64,000 nt of DNA from Candidatus Omnitrophota bacterium (GCA_022709525.1 JAKLIQ010000002.1:262003-326002), one strand, 5' to 3'. Positions 3,860 to 64,000 are shown, counted from the first letter of the stretch. Notes: generated by a model not told the origin, from the letters alone. Made by a program: numbers and translations.

Positions 3860-3920
3860 GTTTTTATCCTTTTTCTGATCTTTCAATTGACCGGTTGAAT
3901 CACAATTCAAAGGTTCTTGG

Positions 3921-3962
3921 CAAAAAAAAATCCTTTCCGGCAGATCTTCCTGCCAAAAAGGA
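3921..3962 (-). terminator. intrinsic terminator/attenuator in the gdhA 5' leader
   Basis: Minus-strand RNA UCCUUUUUGGCAG-GAAGAU-CUGCCGGAAAGGA forms a 13-bp stem (including two G.U pairs) with a 6-nt loop, followed by U9. It sits between a predicted promoter and the gdhA SD/ATG. Confidence 0.55.
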
Positions 3963-4024
3963 CGTCATTATCCTGCGCTGCAACGTTGAACCCGCCCGGC
4001 ACTTCCTTTGTACCAGACAGCAGA

Positions 4025-4052
4025 ATTATAGCACGGACACCTTGATTTTCAA
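4025..4052 (-). promoter_or_regulatory. putative sigma70-type promoter for gdhA (-35 TTGAAA, 16-nt spacer, -10 TATAAT)
   Basis: Read on the minus strand. TTGAAA is at 4052-4047 and TATAAT at 4030-4025. It begins 9 nt after the stop of the upstream GAF-ANTAR gene. Confidence 0.3.
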
Positions 4053-4060
4053 TCCTGATT

Positions 4061-4837
4061 TTATTCCCGGCCGGACGAGAATTTCCGCATTTCTTCGCTC
4101 AAAAGGATCGCCTCCGAGACTTCTTTCATGCTCTTGCGGCGGTCCATGCTGTATTTTTGGATAAGCTTATAGGCCTCCTGTTCGTTCAGGTTCTCTCTTT
4201 TCATGAGAAGGCCCTTGGCGCGTTCGATCGCTTTTCTTGATTCCAGCTCTTCCTGGATCACCTGCGATTCGGCGACGAGCCGGAAGTTCTCAATAACGAT
4301 CGCCGCCTGGCTCGCGATCGAACGGATGACCCGGATCTCGTTCTGGGTAAAACGGCGGGGCTTCACGGTATAGCAATTCAGCACGCCGATCACCGTACCC
4401 TTAAAAACAAGCGGCACGCTTAAAAGCGAGCAAAGATTCTCTTTTTTGGCGATGGCTTGGTTCAGGTACCGCGCGTCCTTCCGGACATCAAGGACTGTGA
4501 TCGGTTTTCCCTGCTGGGCCACCCTTCCCGCAATGCCTTCCCCGAGTTTCGCGTTCGGTTTTTTGTTATAGAATTCGCTTATGGATTGCGTCGCTTTGAC
4601 GACAAGTTCGTTCGTGTCTTTATCCAGGAGCATCAGCGAGCATATTTTGGAATGCATGGTCTCGGCCGTGACGGTCACGATCAGCTTGAGGATCTCCTCA
4701 AGATAAAGGTTTGAAATGACGGCATCGCTGATCTTGGCTAACGCGTCGATGACCTGTCTGTTATTAATGGGTTTCATAGATTGAAAGCCTTTCTCCCGCC
4801 CCCGGATTTTCCATATTTTACACGATTCGTGGATCAA
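4061..4837 (-). CDS. GAF domain + ANTAR (RNA-binding antiterminator) regulator
   Basis: Central GAF-like region and a C-terminal ANTAR signature AIERAKGLLMKRENLNEQEAYKLIQKYSMDRRKSMKEVSEAIL. The real start is possibly the internal ATG at 4777 (MKPINN...). Confidence 0.75.
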   Translation of the reverse strand: MIHESCKIWKIRGREKGFQSMKPINNRQVIDALAKISDAVISNLYLEEILKLIVTVTAETMHSKICSLMLLDKDTNELVVKATQSISEFYNKKPNAKLGEGIAGRVAQQGKPITVLDVRKDARYLNQAIAKKENLCSLLSVPLVFKGTVIGVLNCYTVKPRRFTQNEIRVIRSIASQAAIVIENFRLVAESQVIQEELESRKAIERAKGLLMKRENLNEQEAYKLIQKYSMDRRKSMKEVSEAILLSEEMRKFSSGRE

Positions 4838-4851
4838 TGCGGAATAGGATT

Positions 4852-6288
4852 CTATGCCTTCCCCGTTCGATCGTAGGCGAAAAGAGCCCGTTTGCGGGCC
4901 GCATCGTGATCGATGATGGGACGAGGATAGTTTTGACCGAGCTTCACGCCCGCTTTGGTAAGAACCTCCAGCGGCGCCTGCCAGGGCTTATGAATAAATC
5001 TCGAGGGCATCCCGGAAAGCTCCGGGACCCAGCGACGGACGTAGGATCCTTCGGGATCGAATTTCTCGCCTTGCAATACAGGATTGAAGATCCGGAAATA
5101 AGGCGCGGCGTCCGCGCCGCATCCGGCGGTCCATTGCCACCCGAACGTATTATTCGCAAGATCCGCGTCCGCAAGCGTATCCATGAACCAGGCGGCTCCC
5201 GTTTGCCACGGCTGGAGCAGGTCTTTCACCAGAAACGAAGCGACGATCATCCTCACGCGGTTATGCATCCACCCGCTTCCCCACAATTGGCGCATCCCGG
5301 CATCCACGATCGGGTATCCTGTTCCGCCTTTCTGCCACGCGCGCAATACCCGGCGGTTGGTTTTCCACGGGAATTTGGAGAATTCTTTCCGGAGCGGCCT
5401 GGAAACGGTTCCGGGAAAATGATAAAGGAGATAGTAAGAAAATTCCCGCCAAACAAGCTGCCGCAAAAATGCCTCCGAGGATCTTGCCGAGCCGGGCCGG
5501 CGGTCCGAAGCGGCGTGTTTGCGCGTTGCATGCCAGACCTCGCGGATGCTGATCTCGCCGAAATGAAGGTGCGGGGAAAGCCCGGAAGTTCCCTTTACGG
5601 CGGGATTATTATGCTGGATGGGATAATCCTTGATCTTCTTCTTCAGGAATACCCGCAAAGCCGCTAAAGCCCCCTCGCTGCCCGGATCCCAAAACATGGC
5701 GAGTTTGCGGGGCCATTTCCCTTTCGGCCCTAATTTCAGGTCCTTGATCTTTTCAGAACGCGGCCAAACGGAGGGCGAAATCAACCGGCCGTAAGATTGA
5801 AACGGAGCGGAAGGTTCGGTCAAAGACAAGCAGTGATTCCAAAATGGCGTAAAAACCTTGAAGGGTTTGCCTTGCCGGTTGAAGATCCTCGCAGGGTTAA
5901 AAAGAAGGCTGTCATTGATAGAATCGCAAAAGGTCCCTTTCCGGAGAAGCGCGGCACGGATCTTTGCGTCTTCCTTCCGCTGCTCCGGTTCAAAGCTTTC
6001 GTCCCAAAGGACGGCACCAGCTTTTGATTCTTTGATAAGCGCTTGAAGGGCCTTGAGGGCATTTCCTTTACGGAGAATGAGCCGGGAATCCAATGCACGG
6101 AGATCGCGGTCGAGACTTTGAAGCGAACGCTCAAGCCACCATCGGCTTACGCTGCCAACAGCGGGATCATTGCCCCATATATAAACAAGGATCACGGGAC
6201 CGCCGCGACCTGAAGCGGCCTTCAGGATAAGGTTGTCCTTCGCTCTGAGATTCCGGCGAAGCCAAACAAGCGTGGGCGGACGAAGCAT
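4852..6288 (-). CDS. phr: deoxyribodipyrimidine photolyase / cryptochrome-family flavoprotein
   Basis: Photolyase N-terminus LVWLRRNLRAKDN and the FAD-binding C-terminal motifs TGYPIVDAGMRQL and WMHNRVRMIVASFL. Start placed at internal ATG 6288 (MLRPPTLVWLRR...). The ORF-track N-extension overlaps the receiver gene. Confidence 0.85.
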   Translation of the reverse strand: MLRPPTLVWLRRNLRAKDNLILKAASGRGGPVILVYIWGNDPAVGSVSRWWLERSLQSLDRDLRALDSRLILRKGNALKALQALIKESKAGAVLWDESFEPEQRKEDAKIRAALLRKGTFCDSINDSLLFNPARIFNRQGKPFKVFTPFWNHCLSLTEPSAPFQSYGRLISPSVWPRSEKIKDLKLGPKGKWPRKLAMFWDPGSEGALAALRVFLKKKIKDYPIQHNNPAVKGTSGLSPHLHFGEISIREVWHATRKHAASDRRPGSARSSEAFLRQLVWREFSYYLLYHFPGTVSRPLRKEFSKFPWKTNRRVLRAWQKGGTGYPIVDAGMRQLWGSGWMHNRVRMIVASFLVKDLLQPWQTGAAWFMDTLADADLANNTFGWQWTAGCGADAAPYFRIFNPVLQGEKFDPEGSYVRRWVPELSGMPSRFIHKPWQAPLEVLTKAGVKLGQNYPRPIIDHDAARKRALFAYDRTGKA

Positions 6289-6304
6289 TCTGCGGGCTTT
6301 GAAA

Positions 6305-6706
6305 TTATTTTCCGATAAGCCGTCTGATCTTAGCGAGAAGGTCGGCGGAATCGTAGGGTTTGCGGACGCATGCATTCGCGCCGGCGGCAAGGCACGATTT
6401 TTCAACATCATCCGCTCCGGCGGCGGTCGTGGAGACTATCGGTATGGTTTTGGTAACGGGGTTCGCACGAAGCAGGCGGCAGATCTCAAGGCCGTCCATG
6501 CCCGGCAAGATCACATCCAGCAGAATAAGGTCTGGTTTTTCTTCGGCGGCTTTCTTAAGCCCCGTTTCACCGTCCGAGCAGGATATCACTTCGTAACCGT
6601 TCTTTTCGAGGCGAAGCGTGATCATGGTGATCTGATCCGGCTCATCTTCCACAAAAAGGATCTTTTTTTTCCGATCGACCGTTTTTTCAGGCTTCTTTGA
6701 CTGCAT
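6305..6706 (-). CDS. stand-alone response-regulator receiver domain protein (CheY-like)
   Basis: KKILFVEDEPD...LILLDVILPGMDG...K receiver signature with no output domain. The start overlaps the kinase stop by 20 nt. Confidence 0.8.
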   Translation of the reverse strand: MQSKKPEKTVDRKKKILFVEDEPDQITMITLRLEKNGYEVISCSDGETGLKKAAEEKPDLILLDVILPGMDGLEICRLLRANPVTKTIPIVSTTAAGADDVEKSCLAAGANACVRKPYDSADLLAKIRRLIGK

Positions 6707-27350: not shown

Positions 27351-27397
27351 TTTTTACCTTTCACGCGAAGGAAAACCCGGCCGTTGTCTCCTGGCTC

Positions 27398-27520
27398 TTG
27401 GCAACCTACTCTCCGGCCTTCCCGCCTTTTTCAGGCAGTGGCCTCAAGGATTTCGTTCCAAGTTACAGTTGCGCGGCAGCAACGGATTTGCACCGTTTTC
27501 CGAAAACCGTCCGGATCCGC
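27398..27520 (-). promoter_or_regulatory. cobalamin (B12) riboswitch upstream of the TonB-dependent receptor
   Basis: Minus-strand RNA reads GGUGCAAAUCCGUUGCUGCCGCGCAACUGUAA...GAGGCCACUGCCUGAAAAAGGCGGGAAGGCCGGAG. This matches the conserved GGUGC, AAUCC, GCCACUG (B12 box) and GGGAAGGCCGG elements. Confidence 0.75.
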
Positions 27521-30167: not shown

Positions 30168-30264
30168 AGCCTGTCTTGACCTCTGCTCGGAGGCATTTTA
30201 AAAATCTCAAATCTGAAATTTGAAATTTATGGATAATGGGTTGATATTCTGACTAGGCAAGTAC

Positions 30265-30385
30265 AAACCTACTCGCGGCCTTCCCGCCCTTTAATCTTGC
30301 TCGGGGCAGTGGCGATTCGCTTTCGTCCTTACCGACAGCGGCGGCACCGTGGAGTCCCCGCAAAACTCAGCGGGTCTCTCTTCCC
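30265..30385 (-). promoter_or_regulatory. cobalamin (B12) riboswitch upstream of btuF-btuC-btuD
   Basis: Minus-strand RNA reads GGUGCCGCCGCUGUCGGUAAGGACGAAAGCGAAUCGCCACUGCCCCGAGCAAGAUUAAAGGGCGGGAAGGCCGCGAG. It carries the GGUGC, AAUCGCCACUG (B12 box) and GGGAAGGCCGC elements. Confidence 0.75.
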
Positions 30386-30469
30386 AAATGCTCCCATTAT
30401 CATACTTTCTTCAAAGAACGATAATCTTGACGTTCAGTATAAAGAAAAAACTCATCAGCGCAACGTTTT

Positions 30470-52328: not shown

Positions 52329-52778
52329 GTGAAACACCGTGATGCGTTTGTCGCGAATTTTAGAGAACTGCACCCGAAATTCTCCCGCATGTACGCGCAG
52401 ATGCTTGACCGGGTCGACCTGACCCTTTCGCAATATTCCCTTCTCTATCAGCTGGCCCTCCTCGGGACTATCTCGATGTCTGAGGTGAGTTCCCGGCTTG
52501 AGATCAGTAAGCCGGCCGTGACAAATCTGGTGGACCGGCTGGAAGAAAAGAAACTGCTCCGGCGGCTCCCCCACCCCAAAGACCGGCGGGTGATCCTATT
52601 GAAGATCCTCCCAAAAGGGGAGAAGGTCATTGAGGATCTCCGGAAGAAAAGTCTTGAAGTGCTTTTGAAGGCCTACGACCAGTTCAATGCCGGCGAACAT
52701 GAAACGATCAGCCGTTTCTATGCAACGGTTTCAAAAGTGATGGATGATTTTTTGTTGAGATTAAAAAATGAAAAATAA
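52329..52778 (+). CDS. MarR-family transcriptional regulator
   Basis: wHTH LTLSQYSLLYQLALLGTISMSEVSSRLEISKPAVTNLVDRLEEKKLLRRLPHPKDRRV. Confidence 0.8.
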   Translation: MKHRDAFVANFRELHPKFSRMYAQMLDRVDLTLSQYSLLYQLALLGTISMSEVSSRLEISKPAVTNLVDRLEEKKLLRRLPHPKDRRVILLKILPKGEKVIEDLRKKSLEVLLKAYDQFNAGEHETISRFYATVSKVMDDFLLRLKNEK

Positions 52779-54072
52779 CCGTATTTTGATCTACGCGCTC
52801 GCTTTTTTCTTTCTTGCCTTGCCGCTTGCCGCCCAGGCGCAGCAAAGCGCCTCCCCGGCCCCAGAAACAAATACACCCGTCTTGACGCTTGAAGAATGTT
52901 ACCGGCTTGCGCTGATCCAAAGCGAAATCGTCGCCATTCAAAAAGAAGCGATTGGCCGCGCCACGGCGCAGATCTTCAATGCTACAAGTCAAGCGCTCGG
53001 CGATGTTGATTTTGTTATCAATCGTTCTTTTCAAGACCATCAAAAAGACAGTTTGACCGGTGATTTTGCATACGACCCCAACATCCGGGAAGACAAATTC
53101 GCGATCAGCCAGCCGCTTTTCCAGGGATTCAAAGCGATCGGAGCCTTGACGGGAGCCGGAAGCTTCCGCAGGGAGCAAACGGAAGCGTGGATCCGCGCCA
53201 AAGAATTACTTTATTTGGACGTCGCCCGCGCTTTCTATAGCGTTCTGCGGTATGAGAGAGACATCAGGATCGGCGAAGATATTTGCGATCTGCTCGGCAA
53301 AAGGATCAAAGAGCTTGAAGAAAGAGAGCGGATCGGCCGGTCCCGTGTCAGCGAAGTGCTCACGATCCAAACCAGGCTCAAGGTAGTTGAGGCCGAAGTG
53401 GCAAGCGCCCGGGGGCTTCTTGCGACGGCCCGGTATTTGCTTGAATTTTTGACGGGAACCGAACTTGGGAATAGCCGTCTCCGGGAAGAGTTGTTCGAAG
53501 AAGTCTCCTCGCAACCGCTCGCCGAACACTTAAAACTAGCCGCAGTGCGCTCCGATGTCAAAGCCGCCGAGCAGGCCGTCAGAACGGCTTGGGGCGGCAT
53601 CGTGGTAGCTCAAAGCGGATTCTGGCCCACGGTCACTTTTACGCATAATCAATACACGCGGCGTGAAGGTACCTTGTCGAACCTGGACTGGGACACCCTC
53701 CTAAAATTCAGCGTTCCCCTTTTCTCCGGGACAGAGACGATCGGCGAGGTTAAAGATGCCATCGGTATTTTAAAACAGAAAAAACTCAGTTTTTCCCTGG
53801 CAAAACGACAGGCGGAGCTGGACATCAAACAAAGTTATCAGGTATGGCTGTCTTCAAAAGAAACGAACGATCTCCTGATGGAGGCCGTGCGCCAGGCGGA
53901 AAAAAATTACAAGGTCCAGTCGGAAGAATATACCCGCAGTCTTGTCAGCAACCTCGATGTGCTGGCGGCGTTGGAATCCCTCCAAAGCACCCGCCAAAAT
54001 CAGAATAGAGTTTATTACATCATGAAACAGGATGAGGCGGCCTTCCGGGTTGCGATCGGGGACGTATCATGA
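52768..54072 (+). CDS. TolC-family outer-membrane efflux protein (OMF)
   Basis: Signal peptide plus duplicated OEP repeats. Overlaps the marR end by 11 nt and the RND start by 4 nt. Confidence 0.75.
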   Translation: MKNNRILIYALAFFFLALPLAAQAQQSASPAPETNTPVLTLEECYRLALIQSEIVAIQKEAIGRATAQIFNATSQALGDVDFVINRSFQDHQKDSLTGDFAYDPNIREDKFAISQPLFQGFKAIGALTGAGSFRREQTEAWIRAKELLYLDVARAFYSVLRYERDIRIGEDICDLLGKRIKELEERERIGRSRVSEVLTIQTRLKVVEAEVASARGLLATARYLLEFLTGTELGNSRLREELFEEVSSQPLAEHLKLAAVRSDVKAAEQAVRTAWGGIVVAQSGFWPTVTFTHNQYTRREGTLSNLDWDTLLKFSVPLFSGTETIGEVKDAIGILKQKKLSFSLAKRQAELDIKQSYQVWLSSKETNDLLMEAVRQAEKNYKVQSEEYTRSLVSNLDVLAALESLQSTRQNQNRVYYIMKQDEAAFRVAIGDVS

Positions 54073-57000
54073 ATTTATCCGAGATCTCCATCAAGAACCC
54101 GGTCTTCGCGTGGATGCTCATGATCGGGCTTATGGTCTTCGGCGTGATCGGCTGTCACGGGATGGGTGTCGGACAAATGCCGGATGTGGACTTTCCCGTC
54201 TTGAATGTAAGCGTGCTTTGGGAAGGCGCCGCGCCCGAGGTTATGGAAAGCGACGTCGTCGACATCATTGAAGACTCTGTTATGGGGATCGAGGGGCTCC
54301 GTGAGATCTCGTCCTCCTCTGCGGAAGGAAAAGCCAGCATCAAGCTCGAGTTCGATCTCGACCGCGATATTGACGTTGCGCTGCAAGAAGTTCAGAGCAA
54401 GATCTCGGAAGCGCGGCGCCGCCTCCCTACGGATGTCGATCCTCCCATCATCCAGAAATTCAATCCCGAAGACCAGCCGATCATGTGGCTTTCGATCACC
54501 TCGCGCCTCCCCCTGAAAGAATTGATGGATTATGTCGACCGGAGCATCAAGGACCGCTTCAAGACCGTACCGGGGGTCGGTGAGATCTTCCTTGGCGGGT
54601 TCCTGGAACGGAATCTCCGCGTGTGGATCGATACCCCGAAACTTGCCGCATACCAGCTGACGGTCGAGGACGTCATTGCCGCGATCCAGACAGAACACGT
54701 TGAGATCCCGGCCGGAAAACTCGAAACCCAGGAAAAAGAATCCGCGGTCCGCGCCATGGGCGAAGCCCAATCCGTCGTGGAATTCGAGAAGATCGTCATC
54801 AATAGCCGTAACGGTAAACCCATTTACCGCCCGATCAAATTAAGCGAGGTTGCCCGGATCGAGGACGGTCTTGCGGACCTTAGAAGGATGTCACGCACCG
54901 GCGGAGAGCCGTCCGTCGGCCTCGGGATCCGGAAACAGCGGGGCGCCAATACCGTCGCCGTAGCCGACGGGGTCAGAAAACGGCTTGCGGAGATCCAACG
55001 CGAACTCCCGACGGATTTTTCGATCGGGATCAATTTCGATTCGAGTAAATTTATCTCGGACAGCGTCCATGAACTGTTCCTGACCCTGATCCTTTCCGCC
55101 GTTCTCACGTCTCTGGTATGCTGGCTTTTTTTAGGGTCGTGGAGTTCGAATATGAACATCCTGCTCGCCATCCCCACCTCGATCCTTGGAACTTTCATCG
55201 TGATGAAAGCATGCAATTTCACCATGAACATATTCACTTTACTCGGCCTCTCGCTCGCCATCGGCATTGTCGTGGATGACGCCATCATGGTGCTTGAAAA
55301 CATCGTCCGTCATCGTGAAATGGGAGAAGGAAAGGTCGATGCCGCCTTAAAAGGGTCGAAAGAGATCACGTTCGCGGCGCTTGCGGCCACCTTAGCTATC
55401 GCGGCGATCTTCATGCCCGTGGTCTATATGCAAGGGATTATCGGGAAATTCTTCCTCCAGTTCGGCATTACGATCACTGCCGCTGTTTTTCTTTCGCTTT
55501 TGGAAGCCCTGACCCTCGCGCCTATGCGATGCTCCCAACTGCTTGAGATTGAAGAGAGAAAAACGCGCTTCGGCAAAGCATTTGAGCATGGCATGATCAA
55601 GCTCAAGGAACTCTATGGAAAAAGCCTGGTCCTGACCCTCAAACATAAATGGAAAATCCTTCTTTTGTCTTTTATCTTTTGTGTTGTCTCTTATATGATC
55701 ACGGCTCCCCTGCTCCGAAAAGAATTCACTCCCCCGCAGGACCAGAGCATGTTCCTGGCGGGGCTGGAAACGCCCATCGGTTCCTCGGTTTATTTTACGA
55801 GTGAAAAATTCAAAGAAGTCGAAGCCTTCGCCATGGCGCACCCCTGCGTTAAACGTTACTTTTGCATCATCGGCGTTCGCATGGGCGGGATCGAAGGTGA
55901 AGTGAACGCGGGTATGCTTTTCGTGACCCTTAAGCAACCGCAGGAACGGCCTTATGATCCGGCGCTCAAACGGCGCCCGACCCAACAGGATGTGATGGAC
56001 CAGTTCAGGGAAGGCCTCAACAAGATCCCGAGCATCCGGGCGACCATGCAAGACCTCTCCACGCGCGGCTTCTCGGCCACGCGTGGGTACCCCGTCGAAT
56101 TTTCGATCCGGGGGCCCAACTGGGACAAGCTGATCGAATACGCCCAGACGATCCAGGACAAGATGAAAAAGAGCCCCTACTTTCAGGATATCGACAGCGA
56201 CTACCGTTCCGGCCTCACGGAAGTGCGGATCACTCCGGACCGCGACAAAGCTTTCGACCATGCCGCGAGCGTCGAAACGATCGCCCGTACGGTGAACGCC
56301 ATGATCGGGGGCGAGCGTGTCGCGAAATATACGCAAGACGGAAGACGCTATGATGTCCGGGTCAAAGCCAACGATCAGGACCGCAATGATGCAGAAGATA
56401 TCAAGGAGCTTTGGATATGGAATAACCGAGGCGAAATGGTCCGGCTCGGGGATGTGGTCAAGGTCACGGAACGCCCCAGCCTTTTAAGTATCACCCGTCA
56501 GGGTCGCGAGCGCGCTATCAGTCTTTACGCCGGTACGGCTAGCGGCCAGTCGCTCGCCACCGCCATTCAGCAGGCCAAAAAGATCGCTGACGAGACGCTG
56601 CCGGCTCCCTATCGGGTCGTTTTCAGCGGAACAAGCCAGACATTCAAGGAATCGATGAGGAGCCTCATCTTCGCGCTTGTGCTCGGCATCGTGGTCGCCT
56701 ACATGATCCTGGCCTCCCAATTCAACCACATCGTTCACCCCATCACGGTGCTTTTGGCGCTTCCTTTCAGCGTCATCGGCGCTTTCTGGGCGCTTTTGAT
56801 CGCCAACCAATCGCTTAATATTTTCAGCTTCATCGCTTTGTTGCTTCTAATGGGCATCGTGAAAAAGAACTCCATCCTGCTTGTGGATTTCACAAATAAA
56901 ATGCGGGAACGCGGCATGAACACTTACGACGCGATCCTTACCGCCTGTCCGATACGGTTGCGCCCCATCATTATGACTTCCATCGCCACCATTGCGGCCG

Positions 57001-57221
57001 CCATCCCGCCGGCCCTTGCGCTCGGCCCGGGCGCGGAGACCCGTATCCCCATGGGTGTCGCGATCATCGGCGGGGTATTAGTCTCAACACTCCTTACCTT
57101 ATTCGTCGTCCCCGCTTTTTATCTGGTCTGCGATAAACTGGAACAAAAAGGCTCGATGAGCGTGATCTTTGGCGAGCTTAAGAACAAAATATTCCTTCGC
57201 TTTGGAAAGAAATCCACGTAA
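54069..57221 (+). CDS. RND-family efflux permease (AcrB/CzcA-like, 1050 aa)
   Basis: 12 TM segments with two large periplasmic loops and ACR_tran-wide similarity (GIVVDDAIMVLENI). Confidence 0.85.
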   Translation: MNLSEISIKNPVFAWMLMIGLMVFGVIGCHGMGVGQMPDVDFPVLNVSVLWEGAAPEVMESDVVDIIEDSVMGIEGLREISSSSAEGKASIKLEFDLDRDIDVALQEVQSKISEARRRLPTDVDPPIIQKFNPEDQPIMWLSITSRLPLKELMDYVDRSIKDRFKTVPGVGEIFLGGFLERNLRVWIDTPKLAAYQLTVEDVIAAIQTEHVEIPAGKLETQEKESAVRAMGEAQSVVEFEKIVINSRNGKPIYRPIKLSEVARIEDGLADLRRMSRTGGEPSVGLGIRKQRGANTVAVADGVRKRLAEIQRELPTDFSIGINFDSSKFISDSVHELFLTLILSAVLTSLVCWLFLGSWSSNMNILLAIPTSILGTFIVMKACNFTMNIFTLLGLSLAIGIVVDDAIMVLENIVRHREMGEGKVDAALKGSKEITFAALAATLAIAAIFMPVVYMQGIIGKFFLQFGITITAAVFLSLLEALTLAPMRCSQLLEIEERKTRFGKAFEHGMIKLKELYGKSLVLTLKHKWKILLLSFIFCVVSYMITAPLLRKEFTPPQDQSMFLAGLETPIGSSVYFTSEKFKEVEAFAMAHPCVKRYFCIIGVRMGGIEGEVNAGMLFVTLKQPQERPYDPALKRRPTQQDVMDQFREGLNKIPSIRATMQDLSTRGFSATRGYPVEFSIRGPNWDKLIEYAQTIQDKMKKSPYFQDIDSDYRSGLTEVRITPDRDKAFDHAASVETIARTVNAMIGGERVAKYTQDGRRYDVRVKANDQDRNDAEDIKELWIWNNRGEMVRLGDVVKVTERPSLLSITRQGRERAISLYAGTASGQSLATAIQQAKKIADETLPAPYRVVFSGTSQTFKESMRSLIFALVLGIVVAYMILASQFNHIVHPITVLLALPFSVIGAFWALLIANQSLNIFSFIALLLLMGIVKKNSILLVDFTNKMRERGMNTYDAILTACPIRLRPIIMTSIATIAAAIPPALALGPGAETRIPMGVAIIGGVLVSTLLTLFVVPAFYLVCDKLEQKGSMSVIFGELKNKIFLRFGKKST

Positions 57222-57368: not shown

Positions 57369-59012
57369 TTAGGCGGGCTTGCTTAAGCGAAACCAATAAA
57401 AACCGTGAGGCCCTAGAGTCAGAAAATAAGGAAGTTCCCCGATCTTCGGGAACTTCACATTCCCCCACAGCTCTACGGGCTCCAAACCGTTGTATTTTTT
57501 CAGATCCAATTCCACGGGCTGAACGTATCGTGAAAGATTGTTCACGATCAAGAGAGTTTCGTCTTCATAAGCGCGGATATAAGCGAGGATTTTCGGATTT
57601 TTATGCGCCAAAAACTCAAGCGTGCCCCTGCCGAAAGCTCGGAGGCTTTTCCGTACCCGGATCATTCTTTTAGTCCAATTAAGGAGCGATGACTGCGTTT
57701 GCGACTGCGCCTCCACATTGACCGCCTGGTAACCATACACCGGGTCCTCGATCACGGGCGCATAAAGGTTTGCGGGATCCACGGTCGAGAATCCCGCATT
57801 GTGGTCCCGGTTCCACTGCATCGGCGTCCGCACCCCATTACGGTCCCCGAGGTGGAAATTATCCCCCATACCGATCTCATCGCCATAGTAGATCACCGGC
57901 GTCCCGGGGAGACTGAAAAGCAGGCTGCTTAAAAGCTCCATTTGCCTCCGACCGTTGCTCATGAGAGGAGCGAGGCGGCGGCGGATGCCCAGATTCAGCC
58001 TGGCCTTGGGATCGGTGGCATATTCGCGGTACATATAATCCCGCTCCTCCTCGGTCACCATCTCAAGTGTTAGTTCGTCATGATTGCGAAGAAAAAGCGC
58101 CCATTGGCAGTTGTCGGGGATGGCGGGCGTTTGCCGCATGATGTCCAGAATGGGCGTGTTGTCCTCTTTGCGGATCGCCATAAAGATCCTTGGCATCAAG
58201 GGAAAATGGAAGGCCATGTGGCATTCATCCCCGTTCGCGAAATAAGGACGCACATCCGCCGGCCATTGGTTGGCTTCCGCCAAAAGGACCTTCTCCCGGA
58301 ACATCTTGTCCACCTGGGCGCGTATTTTTTTCAGGTAGTCGTGAGTTTCCGGAAGATTCTCGCAACTCGTTCCTTCGCGTTCAAAAAGATAGGGCACCGC
58401 ATCCAGCCGAAAACCGTCAACGCCGGTCAAAAGCCAGAAAAAAAGTATGTCGAGCATGGCCTTCTGGACCGACGGATTGGCGTAATTAAGATCCGGCTGA
58501 TGGCTGAAAAACCGGTGCCAGTAATATTGACCCGATTCCGGATCGAAGGTCCAGTTCGATTTCTCCGTATCGGTGAAAATGATCCTCGCGTCTTTATATT
58601 TTTGCGGGTCATCGCTCCAGATATAAAAGTCTCGTTTGGAGGAATTTTTCGAAGAACGCGCTTCCTTGAACCAGGGATGCTGGTCCGAAGTGTGGTTAAG
58701 CACAAGCTCGATCAGAACCTTGATCCCCCTCCCGTGAGCTGCTTTGACAAAATCCCGGAAATCCTGCATGGTCCCGTATTCCGGAGCCACTTCCTGAAAA
58801 TCGGAGATATCGTAGCCATCATCTTTCATGGGGCTTTTATAAAACGGGAGAAGCCAGATGCAGTTGATGCCGAGATCCCGGAGATAATCGAGTTTCTGGG
58901 TTAGGCCATGAAAATCGCCGAACCCGTTGGCGTTGCTGTCAAAAAAAGTCTTCACATGAAGCTCGTAGATAATGGCATCCTTATACCAAAGACTCTGCTC
59001 ATTCATGAACAA
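57369..59012 (-). CDS. treS: trehalose synthase / maltose alpha-D-glucosyltransferase (GH13)
   Basis: Near-colinear with mycobacterial TreS: WYKDAIIYELHVKTFFDSNANGFGDFHGLTQKLDYLRDLGINCIWLLPFYKSP...LVLNHTSDQHPWF. 547 aa. Confidence 0.8.
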   Translation of the reverse strand: MFMNEQSLWYKDAIIYELHVKTFFDSNANGFGDFHGLTQKLDYLRDLGINCIWLLPFYKSPMKDDGYDISDFQEVAPEYGTMQDFRDFVKAAHGRGIKVLIELVLNHTSDQHPWFKEARSSKNSSKRDFYIWSDDPQKYKDARIIFTDTEKSNWTFDPESGQYYWHRFFSHQPDLNYANPSVQKAMLDILFFWLLTGVDGFRLDAVPYLFEREGTSCENLPETHDYLKKIRAQVDKMFREKVLLAEANQWPADVRPYFANGDECHMAFHFPLMPRIFMAIRKEDNTPILDIMRQTPAIPDNCQWALFLRNHDELTLEMVTEEERDYMYREYATDPKARLNLGIRRRLAPLMSNGRRQMELLSSLLFSLPGTPVIYYGDEIGMGDNFHLGDRNGVRTPMQWNRDHNAGFSTVDPANLYAPVIEDPVYGYQAVNVEAQSQTQSSLLNWTKRMIRVRKSLRAFGRGTLEFLAHKNPKILAYIRAYEDETLLIVNNLSRYVQPVELDLKKYNGLEPVELWGNVKFPKIGELPYFLTLGPHGFYWFRLSKPA

Positions 59013-59818
59013 ATTCCCCTGAAATGGGCCCGGCGGGATTGGATCAAATACCGCAAAAAATCAAACACTTCCGCAGGAGAATGAATGTAATATCTGGCTT
59101 TTGAGACCGCTCTGGGATTTTGAGTCACTTTGACCGTGATCCCGGAACTCGAAAGGGCCCCAAAAGCGTCTTCATCCGTACGATCATCCCCAAAAAACAC
59201 CGGCAAAAAACGCCCTCCTTGGCAGTGTTTTTTAAGAAGCTGTTGTACGATTTTTCCTTTGTGCCAAAGACGGGGACGGAAACGCACTTCCCAGACCTTC
59301 TTCCCCTCCTGGACACGGATCATGCCGAGCCGAAGCCATGGCGCTATCGCCTTCTGGAACTGCGCGTACAAAGAAGCGACTTTGCTCTCCGGAACCAGCC
59401 GGTAGTGCAGACTGATCCCCAGGGTCTTATTTTCAAGCAACATACCCGCGACAGGGCGTATTTTTTTCTTAAGGTCCGCCCGGATCCGGGCCATGACCTT
59501 GGCAGCTTGCTTGGCGGCAGGATAGATCCAATTGAAATCTTTGGACTTTATTTCAAGGCCGTGGTTACCGGCGTAGATAGCCCCCGGGATGGGCCCGGCG
59601 ACACCCTGAAGATCTTTCAAAGAGCGACCGCTCACAATGGCGATTTTTACGCCTTTGAAGCGGCTTAAGGCGCGCAAAGACTCGCGGACATCCTTCTTTA
59701 GAACGGCCTTCTCGGGTCTTTGTACGATCGGTGTCAGCGTTCCGTCATAATCAAAAAAAAAGAAAACTCTCGGAGCGCGCGCGATCTTTTCGGCGAGTTT
59801 GTCGTTAAAACATCGCAT
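59003..59818 (-). CDS. otsB: trehalose-6-phosphate phosphatase (HAD-IIB)
   Basis: HAD motif I FFFDYDGTL and OtsB-like layout. Overlaps treS by 10 nt. Confidence 0.8.
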   Translation of the reverse strand: MRCFNDKLAEKIARAPRVFFFFDYDGTLTPIVQRPEKAVLKKDVRESLRALSRFKGVKIAIVSGRSLKDLQGVAGPIPGAIYAGNHGLEIKSKDFNWIYPAAKQAAKVMARIRADLKKKIRPVAGMLLENKTLGISLHYRLVPESKVASLYAQFQKAIAPWLRLGMIRVQEGKKVWEVRFRPRLWHKGKIVQQLLKKHCQGGRFLPVFFGDDRTDEDAFGALSSSGITVKVTQNPRAVSKARYYIHSPAEVFDFLRYLIQSRRAHFRGICS

Positions 59819-59830
59819 AGTGGATTCCTC

Positions 59831-62053
59831 TCAAAAAGACCTGAGGAGCTCGGTGATCATATCTGCGGCCCAGCGGTAAATATTGTACTCGCGGACGATC
59901 TGACGCATTTTGCGCATTCGTTCTTTTTTCTCTTCGGGATGCATCGTGAGCGCCTGATGGATCGCCTCCGCGGTTCCTTCAACATCATAAGGATTGACCA
60001 AAAGAGCGCTTGAAAATTCATGGCTTGCGCCGGTAAAACGGCTGAGGATCAAAACGCCATTCTCGTCTTCGCGGGATGAAGCGAACTCCTTGGCTACAAG
60101 ATTCATGCCGTCATGAAGCGAACTGACCAGACAGAAATCCGCAAGGCGGTAGAAATCAAAAATGCGTTTCTGATCATGATGTTCTTCAAGAAAAAGTATG
60201 GGACGGTAATTCCCTTTTTGAAAGCGTTGGTTGATCTTCTCTACAAGCTTTTCAACTTCCTTGAGATGGTCCTGATAGCTCCCGATCAGGGTCCGGGAAG
60301 GGGCGCCCAATTCGACGAAAACCAATTCCCCTTGAAGATGGGGGTATTTTTCAAGAACCCGCTCGATCGCCCGGAACCGTTCCAAAAGGCCTTTGGTGTA
60401 ATCAATGCGGTCCACTCCCAAGCCGACTTTCTTGTCCTTCAGCCCGTGATCCTGACGCAATTTCTCAAGCGGATCTTTGCCTGTTTCTTGAGCCGCGGCA
60501 TTTGGCACGCCGGAGATGCTGATGGGAAACGGGCGGACAGCGCTTGTTTTCCCGCCGCGAGTGATTTCAAAATTCGCCCAATTGATCTTACATTCAAGGG
60601 CGCGGTCCACCGTATCAAGGAAATTGTTGCAATGGAACTGCGTGTGAAAACCAACAATATCACTTCCGAGCATACCCTCCAGGATCTCTTCCTGCCAGGG
60701 ACAGATGCCGAATGCCTCCGCGTTGGGCCAGGGAATATGCCAAAAAAGCGCTATTTTCGCATCCGGGCGTTCGTCTTTGATCATTTTGGGTAAAAGCGCG
60801 AAGTGATAATCCTGGATCAGGATCATGGGAGGATCATCGTCAAGCTCTTTAAGAAGCGCATCCGCAAACTTTTGGTTCACCTCTCTGTAACAATGCCAAT
60901 CCTCCATACGGAAAACAGGCCTCACATGGCTGATATGGCAAAGCGGCCACAATCCTTCGTTGGAAAACCCGTAGTAATACCCTTTTTCCTCTTCCTCCGA
61001 AAGCCATACGCGCTTTAAAGTAAAAGAAGGTTTCCACGGCGGCACCGAAACCTTGCTATCTTTATCAACTACCTCCCGGTCGGCATTGCCGGCGGCGTGC
61101 GCGATCCAGAGCCCGCCGGTCGCCTGCAGGACAGGGTCGAGCGCCGTCACAACGCCGCTGGCGGGCGTGATGCACTCGATCTCATTTCCTTTTTTGCGGT
61201 GAATGTACGGCTCACGGTTCGAGACGACAAAAAGCTTCTTCCCGCGAAGCTGGGAATTTAAATAGTCCTTAAGGCGTTCTTTGGTCCAGATAGTCCCCTC
61301 GGCATTGACCGCCCGCGACTGCTCCACTAAGTCTAATCTGGCCGCTTTGAGGCTTGCGGCCATATGGCTCACTCCGTAAAGAAGCTTTTCGATGTCGCCC
61401 TGCTCCTTGTCAGTTTTCGGCTCCACCCCCGTCTCCACCCCGAGGGCTTTTTGGACCATCAGGCCGATCCGCGCGATCGGTCCCGTCACGCTCCAACGGA
61501 TCACGAAGAGCGAAACGATCGAGAGAATGATCGCAAGAATTGAAAAAGTAAGGGCGGAATTTTTCCAGAATTGCCCGATCTGGGCCACGATAAAACCGCG
61601 ATCATGAACAAGGCCTAAGGCGCCGACGATCTGATCTTCTTTAACCAGCGGCACGCCATGGTAATTGACTTTCCGGCCGTTCCATTTACTGTTGATATCA
61701 ACGGGTTTATTTCCTTCAATAACTTTTTCGGATTCTTTTTTAAACAACTCTTCCTGCGTCAATTCGGGCGGCAAAGCGATCCTCTGCCCGTCCTTCATAT
61801 CCACCACAAGTCCGATCAGTCTTGTGTGCCCCTGGAATTTTTCGATAAATCTCTGGATCCGGTCCGGTTGGTCTGTCCGTTCCAAAAAAGATTCGATAGC
61901 TTCTTTGAAAGATTTGGAAAGAACCGTGGTGCGAAGGCGAAGCTCTTCGTTCAGGCGTTTTTCCTCATGCTTCGCCTGAAAATAGGAGAACCCCGCCACA
62001 ACGATGGTGGTAGCAATCAAAAGAGAAAGGATAAGCCGAAGCGTTATTTTCAT
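59831..62053 (-). CDS. otsA: membrane sensor domain::trehalose-6-phosphate synthase (GT20) fusion
   Basis: The C-terminal ~480 aa form a GT20 OtsA domain ([11 protein letters not shown]...[10 protein letters not shown]...). The N-terminal ~270 aa have TM1 ([20 protein letters not shown]), a ~150-aa extracytoplasmic domain, TM2 ([19 protein letters not shown]) and a HAMP-like linker. Start at ATG 62053, overlapping the MscS stop as ATGA. The ORF-track start is TTG at 62101. Confidence 0.75.
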
Positions 62054-62934
62054 GATTTGTCCCCCGAAACGCTTGAGGCCATTTTGGGGCCCGCCCCCCA
62101 ATAAATTTTCCGGTGCGGGAAAGGAATTTCGATGCCTAGCTCATCAAAACGATTTTTAAGCCGACGTCGGTATTCTCTCGCCACCTCCCATTGTTTGATG
62201 GGCAGGGTCTTCATGCGGCATTTAATGATCACGGCAGAATCCATAAAAGCGTCGACCCCGAGCATTTCCATATCCTCCAAGATCAGCTTGCCGAAATAAG
62301 GGTCTTGGCGCATTTCCTGTGCGATCTCTTTCATAACGCGCATGACGTCATCAACCTTTTCCTTATAGGCAATGCCGACATCCAAGAGGGCTTGAGAATG
62401 TCCTTTTGTAAAATTGATGACGGTTTTGATCTCCCCGTTCGGAATATAGATCACCCGGCCTTCCAGATCCCGGAGCTGGGTCACTCGCAGGTTCATCGAT
62501 TCCACCAAACCTCCGAGCTCGCCGATCTTGACGACATCGTTAACGCGGAATTGACCTTCCAAAAGAATAAAAATACCATTGATAAGATCGCGGATGAGGT
62601 ATTGCCCGCCGAAACCGAACGCAAGGCCCACGATACCGGCTCCCGCAAGCAGCGGAGCAACATCGATTCCGAAATTTTCAAGCAATTCATAAAGGCCGAA
62701 ACATACGATAAAGATCGAACCAAGCCATTTAAGCACATGCAAAAAAGTTTTCAGGCGAAGAATGGATTCTTCCTCCCGGAGGACCTCTTTTCGCGAAATG
62801 GCCGCTTCAAGCCTCTTGAGGCCGAATTTTAACGCGAGAAAAAGCCCCCAGCATAAAAGGAGAATAACGAAGGGCTTCCAAAGCTTGTTGGACCATATTC
62901 CTTGGAAAATTTCGTCCCAAGATGCTGCTGACAT
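62050..62934 (-). CDS. MscS-family mechanosensitive channel
   Basis: 3 TM segments and an MscS beta-domain (GLVESMNLRVTQLRDLEGRVIYIPNGEI). Confidence 0.8.
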   Translation of the reverse strand: MSAASWDEIFQGIWSNKLWKPFVILLLCWGLFLALKFGLKRLEAAISRKEVLREEESILRLKTFLHVLKWLGSIFIVCFGLYELLENFGIDVAPLLAGAGIVGLAFGFGGQYLIRDLINGIFILLEGQFRVNDVVKIGELGGLVESMNLRVTQLRDLEGRVIYIPNGEIKTVINFTKGHSQALLDVGIAYKEKVDDVMRVMKEIAQEMRQDPYFGKLILEDMEMLGVDAFMDSAVIIKCRMKTLPIKQWEVAREYRRRLKNRFDELGIEIPFPHRKIYWGAGPKMASSVSGDKS

Positions 62935-62955
62935 TTAATTAACCTCGCTGACCGG

Positions 62956-63060
62956 TTATTTCTTGTTTTGCCGAGAGCGGATGGCGGCAAACACAATGAA
63001 AGCAACAAAAGCGGCAACTCCCGCATAAACTACTAGATCACCGATCCATCTTGTATTCAT
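62956..63060 (-). CDS. small membrane peptide (34 aa), not in the ORF track
   Basis: ATG at 63060 with GAGGGAAA upstream. Translation: MNTRWIGDLVVYAGVAAFVAFIVFAAIRSRQNKK. Same layout (N-terminal RW, one TM segment, basic tail) as the 57231-57356 peptide. Confidence 0.35.
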   Translation of the reverse strand: MNTRWIGDLVVYAGVAAFVAFIVFAAIRSRQNKK

Positions 63061-63246
63061 GTCCGTTTCCCTCTTCATGCCGGGGCCCGCAAAAATGAAA
63101 AGGGCCGCCGTCTGACTTCTGCGTCAGATGGCGGCCCGACCACCCTCAATACCTCTAACGAATCTTTCCGTTAGACCCTTTCCCAAAAATGAATATCGCG
63201 TTCATGCTAGCTCTCTTATTTTAAAAATGCAACTTCCATTTTGATA

Positions 63247-63945
63247 TCACTTGCCGGCAATGCTGCCGGAAACGATATGAAGGTCCCGCTGCGGAAACGG
63301 GATAGCGATCTTCGCAGCGGCAAGCGCTTTATGGATCGCGAGATTTACCGCGCAAAGCGTTTGGAAATATTTGGTCATCGGGATCCAATACCGGCATCCG
63401 ATATTAAGCGAGGACTCCCCGAACTCCTGAAGCCCGACTTGAGGTTTCGGCTCCTTGGCAACTTCGTTGAAGCTCATGATCGTTCTTTCGATAACCTGGA
63501 TCGCTTTTTCAGGATCATCTCCATAAGAAATGCCGACCATATTTTCGACAATCTTGTATTGAAAAGAATTATGGATGATCTCGCCTACGATATGCTTGTT
63601 CGGAATGGTGATCTTCACACCGTCTTCATCGGTCAGGACCGTACACGCCAGCGTTACTTCTTTGACGATCCCAGCTTGACCCTTCACTTGAATGGTATTG
63701 CCTACCACAAAAGGGCGGCCGAGAATAATCGCGAGCCCGGCCCCGTAGTTGGAAAGCGGCCCCTGGATGGCAAAAGTCAAACCGAAAGCGGCGGCCGAGA
63801 GAGCGGCGACGAGAGGGGTGATCGTGATCCCAAATTTTCCGAGCGCGATGAGAACGGCAAAAGCGAGGATAATGATCTTGATACAATTTGCCAAAAATTT
63901 AGAGAGCGTGATGTCGAATTTTTTCTTCTCGAAGAACCGAAGCAT
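63247..63945 (-). CDS. MscS-family mechanosensitive channel (second copy; N-terminus possibly beyond ORF start)
   Basis: Pore-lining helix AAFGLTFAIQGPLSNYGAGLAIIL and an MscS beta-domain (GIVKEVTLACTVLTDEDGVKITIPN). Confidence 0.75.
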   Translation of the reverse strand: MLRFFEKKKFDITLSKFLANCIKIIILAFAVLIALGKFGITITPLVAALSAAAFGLTFAIQGPLSNYGAGLAIILGRPFVVGNTIQVKGQAGIVKEVTLACTVLTDEDGVKITIPNKHIVGEIIHNSFQYKIVENMVGISYGDDPEKAIQVIERTIMSFNEVAKEPKPQVGLQEFGESSLNIGCRYWIPMTKYFQTLCAVNLAIHKALAAAKIAIPFPQRDLHIVSGSIAGK

Positions 63946-64000
63946 TATGTCGTGGACCCATTTCCCGACAAAGTGCCCGATAACAAGGACAATGATGGCG

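Follow-up and report, generated by a model that had tools for sequence, protein, structure and literature searches.

In this study, we analyzed a 64,000-nucleotide (nt) stretch of DNA from a Candidatus Omnitrophota bacterium (GCA_022709525.1 JAKLIQ010000002.1:262003-326002), referred to here as the window, in which a set of trehalose genes lies on the minus strand. The locus appears best explained as one minus-strand operon that begins with a riboswitch and terminator and continues through a mini-gene of 34 amino acids (aa), the mechanosensitive channel gene mscS-1, a fused otsA, otsB and treS (Table 1). Known OtsA/Tps1 enzymes are normally cytosolic. Here, the 740-aa product of otsA (62053..59831, minus strand) combines, in order, a transmembrane helix (TM1), an extracytoplasmic domain of ~140 aa, a second transmembrane helix (TM2), HAMP, a conserved junction helix and a complete GT20 (OtsA) domain. 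From this architecture and its conservation, we infer that trehalose synthesis may be gated by an envelope signal.

Table 1. Features of the trehalose locus (positions counted from the first letter of the window; aa positions are those of the fused OtsA; ORF, open reading frame; AF2, AlphaFold; AS1 and AS2, HAMP helices 1 and 2).
Feature	Coordinates	Strand	Description
treS	57369..59006	-	Maltose alpha-D-glucosyltransferase / trehalose synthase; ATG overlaps otsB stop by 4 nt
otsB	59003..59818	-	Trehalose-6-phosphate phosphatase (PF02358); begins 12 nt past otsA
Fused OtsA, aa 273-740 + stop	59831..61237	-	GT20 trehalose-6-phosphate synthase domain
Fused OtsA, aa 253-272	61238..61297	-	Predicted junction helix, signature W256-T257-x-E-R260-L261; leads into GT20 strand beta-1
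Fused OtsA, aa 186-252	61298..61498	-	HAMP domain: AS1 with invariant P192, connector, AS2 continuing as helix
Fused OtsA, aa 166-185	61499..61558	-	TM2; hydrophobic stretch inside AF2 helix 153-203
Fused OtsA, aa 26-165	61559..61978	-	Predicted extracytoplasmic single-Cache/PDC-like sensor domain (AF2 and Foldseek)
Fused OtsA, aa 1-25	61979..62053	-	Short basic N-terminus (K2, R6) and TM1, hydrophobic stretch L7-F25
mscS-1	62050..62934	-	294-aa small-conductance mechanosensitive channel; stop overlaps otsA start
Mini-ORF	62956..63060	-	34 aa, single transmembrane helix, MNTRWIGDLVVYAGVAAFVAFIVFAAIRSRQNKK; between riboswitch terminator and mscS-1
Expression platform	63091..63137	-	14-bp hairpin (63137..63102) and U-run UUUUCAUUUUU
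nhaA-I-class riboswitch aptamer	63126..63178	-	Li+-I / Na+-II type; Rfam RF03057
mscS-2	63247..64000	-	Upstream MscS-family gene cut by the window end; Pfam MS_channel 1st/2nd/3rd domains

Translation of the window gave a single uninterrupted minus-strand frame from 62101 to 59831 with no in-frame stop. Within this frame, otsA starts at the ATG at 62053 rather than at the TTG at 62101, since the former is preceded, at a distance of 5 nt, by a GGGGGA Shine-Dalgarno sequence, all homologues start with MKITLRL, and gene callers yield 740 aa. The ATG (62053-62051) overlaps the TGA of mscS-1 (62052-50) by 4 nt, with the sequence AAATCATGAAAATA, an overlap that the initial annotation, made from the window sequence alone, had already noted. 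The fusion could in principle be spurious, through a misassigned start codon, an overlooked stop or chimeric assembly. However, the identical 740-aa protein occurs on six independently assembled contigs, which argues that the fusion is not an assembly artefact, and a second homologue search returned more than 335 clusters of 739-760-aa homologues among the matches listed. Moreover, the N-terminal module and GT20 share one unbroken frame in 79 of 80 loci kept for study from a GTDB scan that covered one genome per species with motifs from a 10-sequence TM2-to-junction alignment. Together with the stop-free frame, these observations already refute an artefact, to which we assign a negligible probability. 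The proposal in the initial annotation that OtsA is fused to a sensor module, with no stop between 62053 and the GT20 domain, is therefore borne out. In the relative L093 (1551-2843), whose N-terminal module is 77% identical, the fused otsA frame ends after 430 aa and continues in another ORF, either because the assembly is in error or because the gene is frameshifted or a pseudogene.

The initial annotation treated the fusion as an unusual occurrence and proposed a survey of GT20 proteins with N-terminal transmembrane sensor extensions. Such a survey reveals a large family, with the fusion confirmed in at least 536 GTDB species genomes belonging to about eight phyla. Of 1.84 billion representatives scanned in full with HMMER against the N-terminal profile, 695 matched at E <= 1e-3 and 237 at E <= 1e-10; nearly all of those that reach past residue 275 run on into GT20, the exceptions being visibly frameshifted fragments and one kinase. 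The 80 loci are distributed among Acidobacteriota (many of them Terriglobia), Ignavibacteriota, Bacteroidota, Elusimicrobiota, Methylomirabilota/NC10, Nitrospirota, Desulfobacterota, Gemmatimonadota and Omnitrophota, and many soil-derived Terriglobales sequences are found among the homologues listed. No cultured carrier was identified, and a search from the protein of an Acidobacteriaceae metagenome-assembled genome (MAG) gave only uncultured Terriglobales and metagenome sequences among the matches listed. Databases hold these proteins under routine names, and JGI labels some of them 'trehalose-6-phosphate synthase/HAMP domain-containing protein'. Our literature search brought up no description of a trehalose-6-phosphate synthase that is membrane-anchored or linked to HAMP and a transmembrane sensor, nor of how widely such a fusion is distributed. 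Taken singly, the components (a WalK-type input, HAMP, GT20, MscS and an nhaA-I riboswitch) are of kinds already known; it is the fusion and its spread that are undescribed in the literature we found.

Pfam returned no significant match in the N-terminal 272 residues. With NCBIfam models, aa 1-209 weakly match the WalK and DcuS/MalK sensor kinases; Cache-type Pfam models match below threshold only (SMP_2, E 0.022; CusS, E 0.23), and a few family members weakly match dCache_1, sCache_3_2 or dCache_3. The fold is more informative. An AF2 model of the module, made from 88 homologues, has a mean predicted local distance difference test score (pLDDT) of 87.5, rising to ~90 or higher in aa 26-165. 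It comprises a helix at 2-59 that contains TM1 and the first sensor helix and is unbroken, as in sensor kinases; a compact alpha/beta core at aa 63-151; a long helix at 153-203 that would include both TM2 and HAMP helix 1; a loop at 204-219; and a helix at ~220-252 corresponding to HAMP helix 2. When this model was compared with the PDB using Foldseek, the best match was the full WalK model 9a5d_A (E 1.4e-10, TM-score 0.70 over 272 columns), followed by the crystal structure of the WalK extracellular domain, 4ywz (TM-score 0.75, root-mean-square deviation 2.8, E 1e-5), and the Cache domains of Tlp3, PctC and KinD (E 3e-5 to 1e-4). In the full-length model (pLDDT 84.1), helix 220-252 is followed by a short break, a WTKERL helix at 258-269 and strand beta-1 at 274-278, with Arg280 just after.

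A search with the N-terminal profile also identified a histidine kinase, P0092 (499 aa), with Pfam matches to HAMP (aa 186-237, E 5e-13), HisKA and HATPase_c. Using hhalign, the profile of the window clade aligned with this kinase at 98.8% probability over columns 1-240, which cover the Pfam HAMP of P0092, and the AS2 segment of the window protein fell onto the canonical DEIGGLAREFNKMAEKL of the kinase. Pfam HAMP itself matches 4 of 54 family members (best E 8.2e-6). Residues 186-252 have the features expected of HAMP, namely ~50 residues directly after a transmembrane helix, a helix-connector-helix arrangement and a conserved AS1 proline. On these sequence and model data, we accept the N-terminal unit as a true sensor-kinase-type input composed of a transmembrane helix, a single-Cache/PDC-like domain, a second transmembrane helix and HAMP. 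The architecture suggested by the initial annotation thus stands, in both fold and profile match to a kinase, with the extracytoplasmic domain shortened from the ~150 aa it gave to ~140 aa. The protein is not itself a kinase, since Pfam finds neither HisKA/DHp nor HATPase_c and GT20 occupies aa 273-736 in their place. A topology with both termini inside and aa 26-165 outside is suggested by the presence of two hydrophobic helices, by the resemblance of the fold to WalK and by the requirement of the enzyme for cytoplasmic UDP-glucose and glucose-6-phosphate. A cleavable signal peptide in place of TM1 was considered and is unlikely, there being no small residue at -3 (F-Q-A) and no break in the predicted helix 2-59.

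The sensor and HAMP module is common to kinase P0092 and the GT20 fusions, suggesting that it has been swapped between kinase and GT20 outputs. One family member, P0008 (913 aa), carries two tandem extracytoplasmic sensor domains ahead of TM2, HAMP and GT20.

The C-terminal part of the protein is a full-length GT20 domain. PF00982 covers aa 273-736 (E 8.5e-122; 407.7 bits against a cut-off of 32.5; profile positions 2-471 of 473), and OtsA/Tps1 structures in the PDB match it at E 2e-79. By comparison with E. coli OtsA (reference sequence identical to PDB 2wtx_A), the counterparts of R9, G22, Y76, W85, D130, H154, R262, R300, D361 and E369 are kept in all 126 family sequences and that of K267 in 125 of them, and the window protein has all the substrate-binding and catalytic residues that were checked. 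We take the roles of these residues to be those known from the E. coli structures 1GZ5 and 1UQT, in which Arg9, the counterpart of Arg280 in the fused protein, presumably binds the phosphate of glucose-6-phosphate. Judged by its sequence, the GT20 part appears to be active.

The scores of two NCBI models lie below their cut-offs, at 427.7 versus 564.85 for the NCBIfam OtsA equivalog TIGR02400 and 484.6 versus 634 for PRK14501, and we therefore describe the protein as a GT20 member whose OtsA function follows from its residues and its otsB neighbor. One could suppose from the equivalog score, and from a secondary match to the GgpS model (306.9 bits), that the domain does not serve bulk trehalose synthesis and instead makes another product, such as glucosylglycerol-phosphate, or makes trehalose-6-phosphate chiefly as a signal metabolite. 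We consider this very improbable, given that the top-scoring models are OtsA and OtsA-OtsB, that all trehalose-6-phosphate synthase substrate residues are kept, and that a trehalose-phosphatase scoring above its cut-off adjoins the gene, accompanied by TreS here and by TreT in other lineages.

Conservation of the N-terminal module, computed over 86 family sequences, bears on whether the module signals. The best-conserved N-terminal positions fall in the end of TM2, HAMP and the junction. They include R186 (91%), W187 (90%), P192 (100%), W199 (95%), R204 (97%) and E227 (97%) at the end of TM2 and in HAMP, the 'ARxAAExEARLR' helix, and W256 and T257 (98%), R260 (94%) and L261 (97%) in the junction. 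The extracytoplasmic domain has few conserved positions, and these are mostly structural (L38, R41, G81, P135 and D151). Such a concentration of conservation in the transmitter is the pattern expected of a signaling protein, not of a mere anchor.

Several observations nevertheless weigh against a sensor-regulated OtsA. The domain map fits a role in membrane anchoring or dimerization equally well, PF00672 (Pfam HAMP) gives zero matches on the fused OtsA even at E up to 10, and the AF2 monomer is modeled with low confidence at aa 205-220, the HAMP connector, and at aa 245-251. A clearly conserved polar pocket is not evident in the conservation profile of the extracytoplasmic domain, and a small-molecule ligand is therefore not indicated. 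Several HAMP and helix residues that hardly vary elsewhere in the family have also changed in the window clade (for example, W199 is M, E227 is G, and ARAAAEEEARLR is replaced), so signal transmission may differ or be relaxed in this lineage. To these can be added the equivalog score given above and the riboswitch, described below, which mixes the U of Li+-I with the terminator platform of Na+-II.

The weak conservation of the external domain and the residues lost from the window clade would also suit an N-terminal module that is a mere membrane anchor or dimerization scaffold without signaling, its sensor-like fold being an evolutionary leftover. Trehalose-6-phosphate synthesis would then be localized to the cytoplasmic side of the membrane, for instance for bilayer protection or product channeling. 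Anchoring, however, requires neither a folded 140-aa external domain nor HAMP, yet both are kept in at least 536 species from about eight phyla; HAMP and the junction are the best-conserved part of the module, which in P0092 serves as the input of a bona fide histidine kinase. We therefore regard an anchor without signaling as an unlikely explanation, though one with a real share of the probability, and favor a sensor-regulated OtsA.

The genes downstream of otsA were correctly identified by the initial annotation, as otsB scores 163 bits against a cut-off of 68 with TIGR00685 and treS 931 bits against 678 with TIGR02456. On contig L001, they are called at 3887-4702 and 4699-6336, respectively. 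Upstream, mscS-1 matches PF21088 (31 bits), PF00924 (69 bits) and PF21082 (35 bits) above cut-offs and NCBIfam MscS models below them. A second MscS gene does lie just beyond, as had been proposed, but its start was misplaced at 63945; the frame of mscS-2 is open to base 64000 and encodes 297 aa on contig L002. This gene shares only 25% identity with mscS-1 and is a separate transcription unit outside the otsA operon; the 312 nt between it and the operon contain the riboswitch, the terminator hairpin and the small ORF. Convergent with treS, the plus strand at 52768..57221 carries genes for an outer-membrane factor (434 aa) and a Resistance-Nodulation-Division (RND) pump (1050 aa), which overlap by 4 nt, have no periplasmic adaptor gene in between, and follow a MarR gene on contig L001.

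We counted the neighbors within 5 kb of the fused otsA in each of the 80 species loci, and the short length of many contigs makes these counts lower bounds. With otsB in 44 loci, TreT in 40, DUF5752 in 36, and TreS and MscS in four each, the fused gene is a regular member of trehalose clusters. In these distant loci, MscS is found directly upstream of the fused otsA (L033), at the head of the cluster (L061) or between otsA and otsB (L011). Among the closer relatives, L093 (N-terminal module 77% identical) and L095 (MscS 81% identical) retain mscS with the 4-nt overlap, and L094 (N-terminal module 79% identical) has no mscS beside its fused otsA. The MscS of the window is only 28% identical to that of L011, suggesting that links between MscS and trehalose genes arose more than once. 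The coupling to MscS put forward by the initial annotation is thus real here, yet lineage-specific and not family-defining. As a separate observation, the MscS core is fused to DUF5752 in L017 (7601-8995; a Thermodesulfovibrionia MAG) and L020 (1796-3256; a Syntrophus MAG), and DUF5752 adjoins TreT as a separate gene in 36 of the 80 loci, which suggests that DUF5752 is a trehalose-related regulatory or binding domain.

A further possibility is a functional partnership between MscS and the fused OtsA, in which gating or tension would be passed from the channel to the OtsA sensor and the ATGA coupling would fix their stoichiometry. The overlap retained in the window, L093 and L095 could be read in this way, as could the recurrence of MscS in the distant trehalose clusters L011, L033 and L061 and as MscS-DUF5752 in L017 and L020. 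On the other hand, the closely related L094 orthologue lacks an adjacent MscS, 76 of the 80 distant loci have none, the association with MscS in the window and L011 is independent, and co-regulation accounts for the linkage without physical coupling. Such a pairing is accordingly improbable in our estimation.

In addition to its sensor module, otsA has a candidate transcriptional input, which the initial annotation had missed. The aptamer heading the operon matches the full RF03057 model (positions 1-55) at 48.9 bits (gathering score 37; E 1e-8). The left arm of the hairpin that follows reuses the loop and the 3' strand of P2 of the aptamer, and the minimum free energy fold of 63185..63085 is -43.6 kcal/mol (z -4.7). 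From its sequence and position, the hairpin is most plausibly a terminator that competes with the aptamer. The operon thus appears to have dedicated transcriptional control directly upstream, which contradicts the suggestion in the initial annotation that envelope gating might operate instead of transcriptional control. Aptamer copies scoring 38-53 bits (Rfam), each likewise followed by a hairpin and U-run, lie upstream of the fused otsA in L093, L094, L095, L037, L043 and L089; the P1 stem varies in sequence between copies, with pairing kept. The Rfam-positive copies amount to seven distinct loci, four from the window clade of Omnitrophota and three from Elusimicrobiota. No nhaA-I RNA was found in the 30 other loci scanned, the Rfam model having covered 37 of 94 loci (L001-L094), and the exact 12-mer search for the aptamer loop that was also run misses variants such as the Desulfobulbus type. 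Aptamers were scored with the Rfam covariance model; a MAFFT alignment of four of them broke the P1 stem. The hairpin at 63137..63102 was also considered as a terminator of the upstream mscS-2. This was rejected, as the gene upstream varies (PFK in L094, a 1124-aa ORF in L095) while aptamer and hairpin remain with otsA, and in L089, from Elusimicrobiota, both lie directly ahead of the fused otsA start.

RNAs of the nhaA-I class are Li+-responsive ON switches, and rare terminator-bearing variants, found only in Deltaproteobacteria, respond to Na+ and were named Na+-II (White et al. 2022, PMC9646797). The association of this class with otsA is already in a published table, with otsA (16) and mscS (3) among 944 downstream genes, and the authors of that study speculate on a link between osmotic stress and trehalose (PMC9646797). 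In their constructs, specificity is set by the base immediately 5' of the CGGGCC loop: Li+-I has U there and the Na+ variant C, and replacing this C with U in the D. propionicus construct (C54U) gave a riboswitch that responded to Li+, Na+ and NH4+ (PMC9646797). The window riboswitch passes the Rfam threshold, has the CGGGCC loop and AGGU of the class, and shares the terminator-type ON-switch layout of Na+-II. At the specificity position, however, the window and all relatives read GGU-CGGGCC, whereas D. propionicus reads AGC-CGGGCC, so that U stands where Desulfobulbus Na+-II has C. In contrast to the published terminator variants, the present copies are in Omnitrophota and Elusimicrobiota. 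By sequence comparison, these riboswitches appear to match neither published subclass exactly. Elsewhere in the window, two cobalamin riboswitch aptamers (RF00174) lie ~3 kb apart on the same strand (27386..27501 and 30222..30412, minus; 80.3 and 39.9 bits).

The mini-ORF between the terminator and mscS-1 matches no Pfam family. It has homologues at the same position in L094 (1363-1479, MRWLGDLIVYVGIAAMVGFFAYVAIKSR...) and L095 (3673-3783, MEWLLRDGPVYFAIIVVVFFFTYVAIRSN...), all of 34-38 aa with one transmembrane helix and the pattern RW[IL]xDLxVYxG..A[IV][RK]S. Its product could be a sensor accessory or a leader peptide. In L037 and L043, from Elusimicrobiota, the position is occupied by different small transmembrane ORFs ending in LKHVFKLF.

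The fused OtsA can be compared with several known systems. It shares with WalK (YycG) and similar kinases the order and fold of the input module, with a structural match over all 272 N-terminal residues and, in P0092, the same module at the profile level; it differs in that its output is GT20 rather than DHp/HisKA and HATPase, without phosphotransfer or a response regulator. With soluble OtsA/Tps1 (E. coli 1GZ5/1UQT and Candida 5HUV) it has in common the full-length GT-B GT20 domain, the checked substrate residues and the pairing with otsB, yet it adds a membrane-spanning N-terminal extension of 272 aa and scores under the NCBIfam equivalog cut-off. This design is generally known from HAMP-linked receptor enzymes (HAMP adenylyl cyclases, GGDEF/EAL proteins and PP2C phosphatases, for instance), whose transmembrane sensor and HAMP are directly joined to the catalytic domain within a single polypeptide. 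Their outputs, however, make or remove signaling molecules or phosphoryl groups, whereas the output of the fused OtsA is a primary metabolic enzyme for compatible-solute synthesis. The Arthrobacter enzyme studied in connection with osmotic stress reportedly has no membrane or sensor module, and the work is said to concern morphogenesis. Arthrobacter OtsA has been described as an osmotic stress sensor (PMC5685639), so that there, too, OtsA itself, beyond its transcription, is tied to osmotic sensing.

The working that we propose for the locus has four steps. First, by analogy with published work on the riboswitch class, a rise in cytoplasmic Li+ or Na+ would stabilize the aptamer and block the overlapping terminator, allowing transcription of the operon. 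Second, OtsA would insert into the membrane with cytoplasmic termini, form a dimer through its transmembrane helices and HAMP, and expose its Cache/PDC-like domain outside. Third, a signal perceived by the external domain or in the membrane (possibly osmolarity, ionic strength, the state of the envelope or a small ligand) would pass through TM2, HAMP and the WTxERL junction helix to the acceptor-binding N-lobe. The junction would end ~20 residues ahead of Arg280, the counterpart of E. coli Arg9, and the relayed signal would raise or lower trehalose-6-phosphate synthesis post-translationally. Fourth, OtsB would finish trehalose synthesis, TreS would interconvert trehalose and maltose, and the co-translated MscS may act as a release valve upon osmotic down-shift. 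On this four-step working, the fused OtsA is best described as a receptor-type metabolic enzyme. We consider a riboswitch-controlled operon with a sensor-regulated, receptor-type OtsA to be the best explanation of the locus, with slightly better than an even chance of being right.

Extended to the family, this explanation describes a widespread class of transmembrane receptors that have a primary metabolic enzyme as their direct output, in which a Cache-like sensor and HAMP would switch trehalose-6-phosphate synthase on or off within one polypeptide. In Omnitrophota and Elusimicrobiota, this switch would be layered under an intracellular cation riboswitch, forming a two-input osmoadaptation circuit that would read cations inside the cell and an envelope signal outside it. 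We put this broader claim forward tentatively, as one that stands a little short of an even chance. Were the module only an anchor, the finding would reduce to an annotation note.

Altogether, this study describes a large family of sensor-fused OtsA proteins and places one of them within a riboswitch-headed operon. The locus offers a natural context in which to address the Li+ versus Na+ specificity of nhaA-I-class riboswitches, a question not yet settled, and extends terminator-type nhaA-I variants beyond Deltaproteobacteria. To our knowledge, rapid, transcription-independent adjustment of compatible-solute synthesis in bacteria is understood for few systems. If our explanation is correct, the direct wiring of a trehalose synthase to a transmembrane sensor would provide a simple example, open to testing, of metabolism under receptor control, and compatible-solute synthesis would be controlled post-translationally from outside the cell in carriers that include dominant uncultured soil Terriglobales. 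Given the size of the family, with at least 536 species genomes and many soil Terriglobales, the behavior of the fused OtsA could bear on the survival of soil and sediment communities through drying, rewetting and changes in salinity.

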